DNA of 64,000 nucleotides, from NCBI RefSeq assembly GCF_057098645.1, contig NZ_CM169472.1; one strand, given 5' to 3'. Made by a program: the position numbers. Numbering within the stretch: position 1 is the stretch's first letter; each line of letters opens with the position of its first letter. Of this stretch, positions 33,001 through 39,000 are shown piece by piece.

Positions 33001-36000
33001 CCACACTTATTTTCCCTGGCTCGCTTTTGCGGGCCTTTTTTTTAAATGTCTCACAATTCAGGCGGTTGACTGTTGTCTGGTTTGCGGGGAGTTTGTTAAA
33101 AGAAACTGGCATGGTGAATCCCCCTGTGCGGAGGGGCAATCAGCGAGTAGGTATATGGGATAATCGCGGATTCAGGTGCTGGTACTGAATTCACCGGGAG
33201 GCACCCGGCACCATGCAATGGCACATAGCGCCACTCTCCAGCCCCTCTCCGGAGGGGCTTTCTTATGGACAAAAAAAGCCCGCGCAGGGAGACGCGGGCG
33301 GCAAGGAATAAACAACAAAACGTGAAGTAATATTTCAGCTGGCGAATAATATCCGACAGTAATCACTCTGCGCAATAGCGCGGCCTTTTTCGTATTGCGG
33401 GCTGTTGTCTCTCTTCTGCCATTGTCCTGTAACTTCCGGACTTCAGCCCGCTCCTCATTTTACTCACAATATTATCCCGGCCGGGAGGATTCATGGCATT
33501 TAAACACTATGATGTTGTCAGGGCGGCGTCGCCGTCAGACCTTGCGGAAAAGCTGACACACAAACTGAAAGAGGGCTGGCAGCCATACGGCGGACCGGTT
33601 GCCATTACGCCGTACACACTGATGCAGGCGGTGGCTATTGAAGGAGATCCACAGGTCGGCCCTTCATCTGTGTTAGCGCCAGTGATATAAGACGGTAATT
33701 CACCATTTGGATTGTCCGCTCCACCCAACATGTTGTTTCCTTAAGGTTCTCACACCAAAAAGGACATCAACATGCTGAGCAGAGAGGACTTTTACATGAT
33801 AAAGCAAATGCGCCAGCAGGGCGCGTACATTGTCGATATTGCGACTCAGATTGGTTGCTCTGAACGAACGGTCAGACGTTACCTCAAATACCCTGAACCG
33901 CCAGCCAGAAAAACCCGCCACAAAATGGTTAAGCTGAAACCGTTTATGGATTACATCGACATGCGCCTGGCAGAGAATGTCTGGAATAGCGAGGTTATCT
34001 TCGCGGAGATTAAGGCAATGGGCTATACGGGCGGACGTTCCATGCTGCGTTACTACATCCAGCCCAAACGTAAAATGCGTCCGTCAAAAAGAACAGTTCG
34101 CTTCGAAACTCAGCCCGGATACCAGCTCCAGCACGACTGGGGCGAAGTTGAGGTGGAAGTTGCCGGGCAACGGTGCAAAGTTAACTTTGCGGTTAATACG
34201 CTGGGGTTCTCCCGCCGCTTTCATGTCTTCGCTGCCCCAAAACAGGATGCTGAGCATACCTACGAATCACTGGTTCGCGCCTTCCGCTACTTCGGTGGTT
34301 GTGTGAAAACGGTGCTGGTTGATAACCAGAAGGCTGCGGTGCTGAAGAATAACAACGGGAAAGTCGTGTTCAACTCCGGATTCCTGTTGCTGGCTGACCA
34401 CTATAACTTCCTGCCACGGGCATGCCGTCCACGCAGGGCCAGAACAAAAGGTAAGGTTGAGCGGATGGTGAAATACCTCAAGGAGAACTTCTTCGTCCGG
34501 TACCGCAGGTTCGACAGCTTCACTCATGTCAATCAACAACTGGAGCAATGGATAGCCGATGTGGCTGACAAACGGGAGCTTCGTCAGTTCAAAGAAACGC
34601 CGGAACAGCGCTTCGCGCTGGAGCAGGAACATCTGCAGCCGTTACCCGATACGGACTTCGATACCAGTTACTTCGACATCCGCCATGTGTCCTGGGACAG
34701 CTATATCGAGGTTGGTGGTAATCGTTACAGCGTTCCCGAAGCGCTGTGTGGTCAGCCGGTATCGATACGAATATCGCTGGATGACGAGTTGCGGATCTAC
34801 AGTAATGAGAAACTGGTGGCCTCACATCGCCTCTGTTCGGCATCGTCTGGCTGGCAGACAGTGCCGGAGCATCACGCCCCGCTCTGGCAGCAGGTCAGTC
34901 AGGTGGAACATCGGCCACTGAGTACCTATGAGGAGCTGTTGTGATGCATGAGCTGGAAGTCCTGCTGAGTCGCCTGAAAATGGAGCATCTGAGTTATCAC
35001 GTTGAAAGCCTGCTGGAACAGGCAGCTAAAAAAGAGCTGAACTACCGGGAGTTCCTGTGCATGGCGCTACAGCAGGAATGGAACGGCAGGCATCAGCGGG
35101 GTATGGAGTCCAGGCTGAAGCAGGCTCGTCTGCCGTGGGTCAAAACGCTGGAGCAGTTCGACTTTACCTTCCAGCCGGGCATCGACCGTAAGGTTGTTCG
35201 GGAACTGGCTGGTCTGGCGTTCGTGGAGCGCAGCGAAAACGTGATCCTGCTGGGACCTCCTGGTGTAGGAAAAACGCATCTGGCCATAGCTCTTGGCGTG
35301 AAAGCGGTGGATGCGGGACATCGGGTACTGTTTATGCCACTGGACAGACTGATCGCGACACTGATGAAAGCGAAACAGGAAAACCGGCTGGAGCGTCAGC
35401 TACAGCAACTGAGTTATGCCCGGGTGTTGATCCTGGATGAAATAGGCTATCTGCCGATGAACAGAGAGGAAGCCAGCCTGTTCTTCCGGCTACTGAACCG
35501 TCGATATGAAAAAGCGAGCATCATACTGACGTCAAACAAAGGGTTCGCAGACTGGGGAGAAATGTTCGGAGATCACGTGCTGGCAACAGCGATCCTGGAT
35601 CGGCTGCTACATCACTCAACCACGCTGAATATCAAAGGAGAGAGTTACCGGTTAAAAGAGAAACGTAAAGCTGGAGTGCTGACCAAAAACACAACGCCAA
35701 TCAGTGATGATGAAATGGTGAAAAGCGGACAGCATCAGTAACGAAAGTATTTTAGCGGGCATGAAAATGGCAAATAACGGTCAAACATCGTGGCGTTGAC
35801 ATCTGAGCCGGACTGGTTCTACGTGGTTGTGCTTGCCGGACAGTCCAACGGCATGGCCTACGGTGAAGGGCTTCCGTTACCGGATTCTTACGATGCTCCG
35901 GATCCGCGCATTAAACAGCTGGCGCGCCGCAGCACGGTAACTCCGGGTGGAGAGAGTTGTACGTATAACGACATCATTCCGGCTGACCACTGCCTGCATG

Positions 36001-39000
36001 ATGTGCAGGATATGAGTACGCTGAATCATCCGAAGGCAGACCTGAGCAAAGGGCAGTACGGCTGTGTCGGCCAGGGCTTACATATTGCCAAAAAACTGCT
36101 TCCGTATATCCCGAATAACGCGGGGATCCTGCTGGTACCATGCTGTCGTGGTGGTTCGGCATTTACCCAGGGCGCGGAGGGGACATTCAGCGAGTCCACG
36201 GGGGCCAGTCAGGATTCGGCACGCTGGGGGGTGGGCAAGCCGTTATATCAGGATCTGATTTCCCGCACAAAAGCGGCATTGCAGAAAAATCCCAAAAACG
36301 TTCTGCTGGCCGTCTGCTGGATGCAGGGTGAGTTTGACATGAGCGCCGCCACCCACGCACAGCAACCTGCGCTGTTTACAGCCATGCTGACACAGTTTCG
36401 TGCTGACCTCTCCGTGTTTAACGCGCAGTGCCATGGTGGCAGCGCTGCAGATGTGCCGTGGATTTGTGGTGACACGACGTATTACTGGAAAAATACATAC
36501 GCTACCCAGTACGACACCGTGTACGGCGGGTATAAAAACAGGGAGAGTGAGGGCGTTTATTTTGTGCCCTTCATGACAGACGGTAACGGCGTCAATACCG
36601 CCACTAACGCGCCGGCAGAAGATCCGGATATTCCGGCATCAGGATATTACGGTGCGGCATCGAGAACGAATGGAAACCAGGTATCATCAAACCGCCCGAC
36701 ACATTTCAGTTCATGGGCGCGCAGGAGCATTATTCCGGATCGTCTGGCAACCGCTATTCTGAACGCAGCCGGGCGCACCTCAGCCTTCATCAGTGGTAAG
36801 GCACCGGAAATCAAACCCTCGCCCGGCGGCAACACGCCATCGGGTCCGTCTGCAGATACGTCCGTTCGCACAATCTCCCTGCTGCCGGCAGCCGGAGAGG
36901 CTGCTGCGCAGGGCTGGAGCATTAAGGATGGCGGAATTCAGTTGTCAGATGGTGTATTTAAGATCACCAAGCAGAGCAATAAAACCTGGTCCCTGACGCA
37001 TCCGGTGGATGACGCAATTACCCTGCTGACACAGGGCGGCAGACTGACCTGTAAGTTCCGCCTGTCAGGCGCACTGACCAACAATCAGTTCGGGCTGGGG
37101 ATTTATCTGTATACGGATGCTCCCGTTCCTGATGGTGTGGCGATGACGGGTACCGGTAATCCGTTCCTGATGTCGTACTTCACTCAGACCACTGACGGCA
37201 GAGTGAATCTGATGCATCACAGGAAAGCCGGAAACACGAAGCTGGGGGAGTTCGGCGATTACGGTAACGACTGGCAGACGCTGGAGCTGGTGTTCACCGC
37301 CGGCAGTGCCACGGTTACTCCGAAACTGAATGGAGTGGCTGGCCCGGCATTCCAGGTTATAAAAGACAGTCTGACACTGGGACTGAATGCGCTGACGCTG
37401 ACGGATGTTACAAAAAATGCAGCGTATGGCGTTGAGATAGAAAGTCTGGTGCTGGAGATAAATGCACCGGCAGCATAATAAAAAAAGAGCCAGCGACTGA
37501 CCTGAAAGAAGACGCTGGCTAAAAGGCCTTATATGTTTGTAGAGACTTATTTTTCACAGACAGCAATGATGCCTGTCAATATATTATCAATATGCGGATT
37601 GTTTCAGTTACAGATGCTTTATTAAGGAAAAAAACAGCCAGCACTGACTTTCGGTGGAGAGGTGCTGGCTCAGAAGGATAGTTGGATTTCACATGATACT
37701 TATGCCTGGCGGTATATTTTCTGACAGACAGTGACGGGTGTTGTCAAGATATTGTGTCATTTATAACCTGAATCAGGGGGGGGCCGGAATGTTATCTGGC
37801 ATTTTTAGCAGAGCCTGAATGCCATAATCACGGCTCCCGGAGTTGGCCGTCAGTGGGTGACACTGGCGGCTTTTTTGTTTTTCTTTACTTTCATTTTCTG
37901 TCGGCGGTGACGGAGACATACATCAGATGGAAAAAATCACAACAGGTGTGTCATACACCACGTCAGCGGTGGGGACGGGATACTGGTTACTGCAGCTGCT
38001 GGACAAAGTCTCTCCGTCCCAGTGGGTGGCAATAGGTGTGCTGGGAAGTCTGCTGTTTGGCCTGCTGACGTATCTGACTAACCTGTATTTCAAAATCAGA
38101 GAGGACCGTCGTAAGGTGGCGCGGGGAGAGTAGTCGATGAATAAACAATACGAACTGGTTGTAAAATGAATATTTCTAACTGAAAAAACGTTCCATGAGG
38201 TAAGAAAAGGTCACAGGCAATCAATAACAGGACGTGATGAAAGACCCTTGCATTTGTGCGCTTTCTCTTTAGATAGCAGCAGATACTGAAAATCTGAGTT
38301 GTCGGGGAGTCAGGGATACAGCTGTGCAAGAGTTGGTCATTGTGATTCCATTGAAATCCTGTATGCCATGAAGGGCAGGATTTTATGGCTACCTGAGCTT
38401 TGGTGATAGTAAGTTGAAAATTCGCATTTTTTGCTGACATGCGTAACGAGAATCCCATAAACAGGGAGGACTTAATTCTTCATTAACCCATGCGTTGATA
38501 TTATGTTTCAGCCGTTGAAGCATCAGCGGTGTTAATGTTGTGGTAATAATATCCAGCGTTTTATGTGAGATCTTACCGTAAGGGTCTGCAAGAATGCTGC
38601 TTGTTGCTTCGTTATTATCTGCCATCAGAAGAAGTAACTCTGATTTAACGTTTTCTGTCATTAGTTGTAAAAATCTTCTGCGCAAACTTTCTTTACTGTT
38701 CATTTATATGGCTTCATTTGTTGTAATCTGCTGCGTCTCAAGGGATATGTTTATGAGAGCGACCATGAGTGTTTGATTATATACCTAACATATCAAGGGA
38801 TTAGAAATCGATAAATCCCCATGAACGAAAAAATAAAATACGGCCTGTCGGCTGCCGTTCTGGCGCTGATTGGTGCAGGTGCTTCTGCGCCTGAAATCCT
38901 CGACCAGTTTCTGGATGAAAAGGAAGGTAACCACACCACGGCATACCGTGATGGTGCGGGGATCTGGACCATCTGCCGTGGTGCCACCCGGGTGGATGGT

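Follow-up and report, generated by a model that had tools for sequence, protein, structure and literature searches.

The sequence considered here is a stretch of 64,000 nucleotides from contig NZ_CM169472.1 of RefSeq assembly GCF_057098645.1 (the window, in what follows), which contains a roughly 50-kb lambda-like, stx-negative prophage lying beside yccA in an O145:H28-like Escherichia coli. In the late region of this prophage a gene of the nanS-p type, coding for a predicted sialate O-acetylesterase, is split by a complete insertion sequence (IS) of the IS21 family, which is the single copy of this element in the window and is oriented in the same direction as the late operon. The features of the locus and of its surroundings are collected in Table 1.

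Table 1. Features of the interrupted esterase locus and of the neighboring prophage region, in window coordinates
Feature	Position	Strand	Basis or remarks
IS2, 1331 bp, with 5-bp duplication GCGCG	22312-23642	InsC/InsD open reading frames (ORFs) on -	Inside replisome-organizer (O-like) gene
Late-gene antiterminator Q	30049-30420	+	Annotated relatives; 74% DNA identity to Q of VT2phi_272
CPBP-family intramembrane protease	30566-31390		Between Q and tRNAs
65-aa ORF	31677-31874		Between Q and tRNAs
AraC-like helix-turn-helix regulator	32012-32725		Between Q and tRNAs
tRNA cluster: tRNA-Ile2 (CAT anticodon), tRNA-Arg (tcg), tRNA-Arg (tct)	32754-33003	+	93% identical to VT2phi_272
stx-empty point, where Stx2a-phage homology skips 1332 bp	33044-33047	.	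Comparison with VT2phi_272
5' esterase fragment: codons 1-59 plus one base, entire DUF1737	33493-33670	+	Sequence, Pfam
Left TCTG of 4-bp target-site duplication	33667-33670	.	Single TCTG in empty site of 2011C-4251
IS21 copy, complete, 2131 bp, ends TGT...ACA	33671-35801	+	Sequence; identical full-length copies elsewhere
istA, IS21 DDE transposase, 390 aa	33772-34944	+	NCBIfam NF033546; WP_058800785.1 in identical copies
istB, AAA+ helper ATPase, 266 aa	34941-35741	+	NCBIfam NF038214
Right TCTG of 4-bp target-site duplication	35802-35805	.	Sequence
3' esterase fragment: codons 60-616 plus stop	35806-37478	+	Sequence, Pfam, PDB matches
Class II holin S, 68 aa	37927-38133	+	ORF list, annotated relatives
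Hypothetical protein (WP_000138558.1 in relatives), antisense between holin and lysozyme	38389-38703	-	ORF
Lysozyme R, 177 aa	38821-39354	+	ORF list, annotated relatives
IS629, 1310 bp, with 3-bp duplication GGC	39628-40937	-	Between lysozyme and Rz, inside 37-codon annotated ORF
PerC-family (Pch-like) regulator	41936-42250		Just after lysis genes

The inserted element begins with TGTTAGCGCCAG and ends with GTGGCGTTGACA, and thus displays TG/CA termini and imperfect inverted repeats; when the left end TGTTAGCGCCAG is set against the right end read as its reverse complement (TGTCAACGCCAC), 9 of the first 12 positions match (counted by eye). These terminal repeats escaped an automated search with a 7-nt seed, being too short and too imperfect to be reported by it, so the boundaries of the element rest on an empty site and on identical copies found elsewhere. 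The empty site was recovered by a megablast search with positions 33200-37700 against 5,426 complete E. coli genomes: in the genome of 2011C-4251 the two flanks are contiguous in a match of 2366 bp, equal to the 4501 bp of the query minus the 2131 bp of the element and the 4 bp of one duplication, with one synonymous difference, and the gene is annotated there as a single 1851-nt coding sequence. Likewise, in C325 the same prophage occupies the same chromosomal site and carries an intact 616-aa esterase. A 6-bp duplication, CATCTG, was also considered, this hexamer being repeated at both junctions as an overlap of the BLAST matches; however, its CA is the conserved IS end in other copies and belongs to the terminus of the element, so that the duplication is of 4 bp. 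Indeed, the four other copies that were inspected have identical termini, each with its own 4-bp duplication (CCAC, CAAC, AAAT and CAGG).

Joining positions 33493-33670 to 35806-37478, i.e. removing the element together with one TCTG, yields an uninterrupted 1851-nt ORF of 616 codons. An earlier note, made by a first reading of the raw sequence, had described a 2131-bp IS with TCTG duplications between a 59-codon N-terminal and a 557-codon C-terminal segment of an ORF of about 616 aa. The two segments are recovered in both the ORF list and the raw sequence, the boundaries of the IS and of its duplications agree with the empty site and the other copies, and the 616-codon frame has an intact natural counterpart. 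The same note called the position of the insertion frame-restorable, which is true here but carries no special meaning, as it holds for any IS insertion with a target duplication.

The element encodes the two proteins typical of its family in overlapping ORFs of 390 and 266 codons. The IstA transposase scores 284.9 bits against NCBIfam NF033546 (cutoff 160) and the helper ATPase IstB 301.9 bits against NF038214 (cutoff 200), so that both lie above the curated cutoffs; this upholds the assignment to the IS21 family made in the earlier note, as does the label 'IS21-like element IS21 family transposase / helper ATPase IstB' which the Prokaryotic Genome Annotation Pipeline (PGAP) attaches to identical copies. 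At least 80% of the 2131-bp element is contained in 864 records, and ten copies, residing in different genes on chromosomes and plasmids of unrelated E. coli, are 100% identical to it at full length. It is therefore a mobile element, present as discrete copies at unrelated sites. The PGAP label on the identical copies further provides indirect evidence that the closest named element might be IS21 itself, the prototype of the family, which in its R68.45 form is 2131 bp in length. The copy in the window shares with IS21 the istA and istB genes, the TGT...ACA ends, the TTGACA at the right end, the 4-bp duplication and the length of 2131 bp, and no difference between the two was detected. The last six bases of the window copy, TTGACA, form a perfect -35 hexamer, and at the right end of IS21 this sequence is an outward-facing -35 box that is used in tandem copies (PMC10122671).

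The reconstructed 616-aa protein contains three domains recognized by Pfam, namely DUF1737 (residues 3-49, E=2.3e-15), SASA (residues 66-262, E=4.5e-12) and DUF6645 (residues 467-577, E=9.4e-18). Its residues 60-379 match the NanS/YjhS structure PDB 3PT5 (E=1e-121), with Ser73, of the GQSN motif, and His359 aligned to the GQSN serine and a histidine in 3PT5, presumably the catalytic residues of NanS. Residues 421-613 match PDB 6YP6 (E=8.4e-30), the chain of which is named NanS-p, and correspond to a lectin-like C-terminal domain. In a tblastn search against phage genomes 341 records cover at least 80% of the protein, and these are overwhelmingly Stx1- and Stx2-converting phages. On the strength of these sequence relationships the gene is classified as a member of the NanS-p family and as a phage-434-type allele, and a 98%-identical allele is present in O157:H7 and O55:H7 genomes. 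The nanS-p-type esterase proposed in the earlier note is thus borne out by the three NanS-p domains, the matches to the NanS and NanS-p structures, and full-length alignment to Stx-phage esterases; moreover, intact 616-aa homologues span both of its halves, the N-terminal piece not being derived from an unrelated protein. Activity on 5-N-acetyl-9-O-acetylneuraminic acid has been shown for the NanS-p alleles of EDL933 and O104:H4 (reviewed in PMC8065619), the allele in the window being a putative esterase of this family. Between the esterase genes of the window and C325 (28906-30756 of the C325 stretch compared) there are 27 nucleotide differences, all within gene positions 531-816, which result in 3 amino-acid changes in the catalytic domain; such clustering is suggestive of a short patch of recombination involving nanS-p paralogues.

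The insertion follows residue 59, within the linker that joins DUF1737 to the catalytic domain, and the two pieces that it leaves behind differ greatly in their apparent capacity for expression. As it stands, the ORF of the 5' piece (33493-33690) codes for 65 aa, comprising the 59 native codons and 6 supplied by the IS (VLAPVI), and is preceded by a strong Shine-Dalgarno sequence, GGAGG, with a duplex energy of -10.3 kcal/mol. The ORF of the 3' piece (35790-37478) has 562 codons, of which the native part accounts for 557 plus the stop, and contains the GQSN motif. Its sole in-frame starts before Ser73 are GTG 35790 and TTG 35796 in the IS end, GTG 35823 and GTG 35829, and the anti-Shine-Dalgarno pairing of these candidates is only -2.4 to -4.8 kcal/mol, versus the -10.3 kcal/mol of the native start. 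A promoter scan found no promoter-like site across the right IS junction. A hybrid outward promoter arising from the terminal TTGACA was considered and rejected, as the scan gave no junction-spanning site and the hexamers lying 16-18 nt downstream (TCTACG, CTACGT and TACGTG), compared by eye, share at most 2 of 6 positions with TATAAT; moreover, a promoter of this kind would initiate transcription downstream of the start codons in the IS end. Separate translation of the 3' fragment is hence unlikely, and, judging from the want of a usable promoter or ribosome-binding site before this part, the esterase is very probably inactivated. The disruption reported in the earlier note is accordingly retained: the gene is cut after codon 59 and no longer has an intact coding sequence, making it a disrupted member of the NanS-p family, i.e. 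a pseudogene.

The insertion appears to be of recent origin. A search of the 5,426 complete E. coli genomes found none with the IS at this site in the esterase gene, no place in them matching 80% or more of the query, and the 32-nt sequence of the left junction has no exact match among metagenome contigs. No additional damage is seen in the reconstructed ORF, the IS shows 100% identity to copies elsewhere, and the two TCTG repeats agree perfectly. The insertion is thus likely to be both recent and strain-specific, since it is unseen in the genomes searched, its two gene halves have not decayed, and neither the element nor the duplication has diverged. Taken together, these observations suggest that one copy of IS21 would have recently transposed into codon 59/60 of the prophage nanS-p-type gene, generating the usual 4-bp duplication. 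Starting at the native ribosome-binding site, translation of the 5' piece might continue to yield a 65-aa DUF1737 peptide, while the 3' piece, now without start codon, ribosome-binding site or continuity of translation, would most likely not give rise to an esterase. The nanS-p copy of the window would accordingly be a fresh pseudogene, and the insertion might be part of a continuing IS-driven decay of the prophage. As a whole, this explanation, a recent IS21 insertion that inactivates a prophage nanS-p gene, can be held with considerable confidence. Genes of this type are found in 1,955 of the 5,426 genomes, each of which has a median of 2 such places and at most 11, and five to seven or more active nanS-p alleles have been reported in strains of enterohemorrhagic E. 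coli (PMC8065619). Given this multiplicity of copies, the loss of the one in the window is probably of little consequence.

Several points weigh against the silence of the 3' fragment. The annotated start of the lysozyme gene scores a mere +0.2 kcal/mol in the same anti-Shine-Dalgarno test, showing that the strength of this pairing predicts only imperfectly. The 3' fragment keeps the catalytic and lectin domains in full, and the in-frame GTG 35790 opens a 562-aa ORF. Further, the IS runs in the same direction as the Q-antiterminated late transcript, so that mRNA may well extend over the 3' fragment after induction of the prophage. The loss of esterase expression is, finally, something that we infer.

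Despite the weak pairing at the candidate starts, independent translation was hence retained as an alternative, because the lysozyme start scores poorly in the same test. Under this alternative the IS would have split the gene into two functional parts, namely a free DUF1737 peptide and a NanS-like, lectin-bearing esterase that is translated from GTG 35790 or TTG 35796 on late read-through transcripts. The position of the cut in the interdomain linker, after residue 59, is compatible with such a partition, as is the alignment with NanS (3PT5), which starts from query residue 60 at about residue 6 of native NanS; chromosomal NanS is likewise devoid of DUF1737, and the 3' ORF retains both Ser73 and His359 intact. 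In phage phi24B the DUF1737 of gp84 has been described as a capsid-decoration domain that occurs on virions in a proteolysed form comprising residues 2-57, and DUF1737 proteins are reported to consist for the most part of this one domain (preprint 10.64898/2026.04.10.717836); the IS separates the two parts of the gene almost at the cleavage point proposed for gp84, after about residue 57. The shared orientation of the IS and the late operon likewise speaks for this alternative. However, all this support is one of geometry. No Shine-Dalgarno-like sequence stands before GTG 35790 or TTG 35796 (-2.4 kcal/mol), and the junction offers neither a promoter-like site nor, by way of TTGACA, one that would start ahead of these codons. 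The insertion was seen in no genome but this one, and hence nothing suggests selection for the split arrangement. The head of the prophage is lambda-type, with homologues of gpE and gpD, rather than the T=9 podovirus capsid for which binding of DUF1737 was shown, and the prophage is in any case probably defective, owing to the IS2 in its replication gene. A functional split of the gene is accordingly improbable. About as improbable is its fullest version, wherein the locus would make a free capsid-binding DUF1737 peptide and an untethered esterase via the GTG of the IS end, with the late promoter also transcribing istA and istB. If this were true, the split locus would mimic by genetic means the proteolysis proposed for gp84 of phi24B, and the presence of istA and istB on the phage late transcript would couple IS21 transposition to prophage induction. 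That the interrupted gene results from an error of assembly, or from two unrelated ORFs that happen to lie on either side of an IS, could be proposed from the failure to find the same junction in the other genomes or metagenome contigs searched, but is hardly credible in light of the perfect 4-bp duplication, which has the same length as those at the four other copies and would not be produced by repeat-driven misassembly, and of the colinearity of both flanks with one intact gene, at one synonymous difference over 2366 bp.

The recent inactivation of the gene by IS21 thus being the preferred reading, its setting in the prophage may be considered. The first 22 kb of the window match O145:H28-like genomes (C325, Z1323HEC0399 and RM12761/RM13516) at 99.9-100%. 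The late genes are arranged in the order Q, CPBP protease, small ORF, AraC-like regulator, tRNA-Ile2/Arg/Arg, esterase, holin, lysozyme, Rz, PerC-family regulator and lambda-type head and tail genes. A tRNA cluster of this kind stands upstream of stx in Stx phages. Homology to the Stx2a phage VT2phi_272 extends to window position 33044 (position 4224 of the phage stretch) and resumes at 33047 (5557), with flank identities of 93% upstream and 71% downstream; the part skipped (4225-5556) contains exactly stxA and stxB. A tblastn search with Stx2A and Stx2B against the window found nothing better than E=0.7, and no Stx-like coding sequence. From this alignment the interval between the tRNAs and nanS-p is read as a clean stx-empty form of the Stx-phage locus. 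The earlier proposal of a nanS-p locus without stx agrees with this, in both the order Q, tRNA-Ile/Arg/Arg, esterase, holin and lysozyme and the exact jump over stxAB. The three accessory genes between Q and the tRNAs, i.e. those for the CPBP protease, the 65-aa ORF and the AraC-like regulator, are kept in 2011C-4251 and C325. The holin and lysozyme genes are separated here by a gap of about 690 bp, whereas S and R are adjacent in phage 434 and Stx2 phages. In the counterpart prophage of C325 the tail-fibre genes are followed (in the part corresponding to the window beyond about 62800) by the type III secretion system effector genes nleB2, an nleC fragment and nleH, and on this account the prophage is likely to be of the effector-carrying 'exchangeable effector locus' type.

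The prophage contains two further strain-specific IS elements in addition to IS21. The IS2 at the replisome-organizer site is missing from C325, and through this insertion the prophage is probably replication-defective. The IS629 at the lysozyme/Rz site is missing from both 2011C-4251 and C325. In C325 a 100% identical IS629 lies instead within tRNA-Arg(tct), at the equivalent of window positions 32962-32964. The prophage is under degradation by IS elements, and the IS21 insertion, along with IS2 and IS629, documents this process in what would be an effector-carrying prophage. Beyond annotation, where two ORFs would be merged into one IS-disrupted nanS-p pseudogene and the element named as IS21, the insertion matters little. 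Nevertheless, its junction is a strain-specific marker, which could aid typing within the O145:H28-like lineage. The cut also coincides with the domain boundary that has been proposed as the processing site of NanS-p, and the strain might in effect be a natural 'DUF1737-only' mutant, mildly useful for studying DUF1737 in lambda-type virions.

Comparable events are on record for this gene family. IS insertions in the nanS-p of Stx2a phages, namely of IS629/IS1203 and ISEc8, as well as the presence of nanS-p in non-Stx prophages, have already been described (PMC10462455). The present case is of the same nature and concerns the same gene, but it differs in involving the IS21 family, another insertion point and a non-Stx prophage. 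Likewise, the nanS-p of the Stx2c phage Stx2_EH1904 (LC645408.1) contains an IS629 (2886-4196 of the stretch compared) with 99.9% identity to the copy in the window. In phage 2B8 (NC_049952.1) the esterase gene is split by a tandem duplication of about 127 bp (at about 3340-3590 of the stretch compared), with its second half being annotated as 'Mobile element protein'. Neither the IS, nor the gene, nor the phenomenon is thus new, and novelty is confined to the particular IS21/esterase junction.

Among known esterases, the reconstructed protein is identical to WP_106913076.1 ('SASA family carbohydrate esterase'), and 98.1% identical to the esterase of coliphage 434 (UMO75335.1), which has the same length of 616 aa and shares 56 of the 59 N-terminal residues. 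The genes of phage 434 and of WP_106913076.1 and WP_000874348.1 (the latter two from E. coli prophages) are intact, whereas that of the window is interrupted. The NanS-p proteins of 933W (Z1466/L0105), phi24B (vb_24B_21, i.e. gp84) and the VT2phi_272 type are more distant, with an overall identity of about 53%; hence the nanS-p label is to be read with the qualification that the experimentally characterized 933W NanS-p is related to the window allele at only about this level. Counted by domain, 226/319 residues are identical in the catalytic part, 72/195 in the C-terminal part and 37-38/59 in DUF1737, and the window protein is shorter (616 versus 645 aa), with a shorter linker. It nonetheless aligns with the 933W and phi24B proteins over its full length, sharing the combination of DUF1737, a NanS-like SASA domain and a jelly-roll C-terminal domain, and the genes occupy a common position between Q, the tRNAs and (where present) stx on the one side and the holin on the other. 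Unlike the genes of the Stx phages, that of the window is interrupted and has no stx upstream. Chromosomal NanS (YjhS, 3PT5), in turn, has in common with the window protein the catalytic domain with its GQSN serine and histidine, but lacks both the DUF1737 and the C-terminal lectin-like domain that flank this catalytic core in the prophage esterase.

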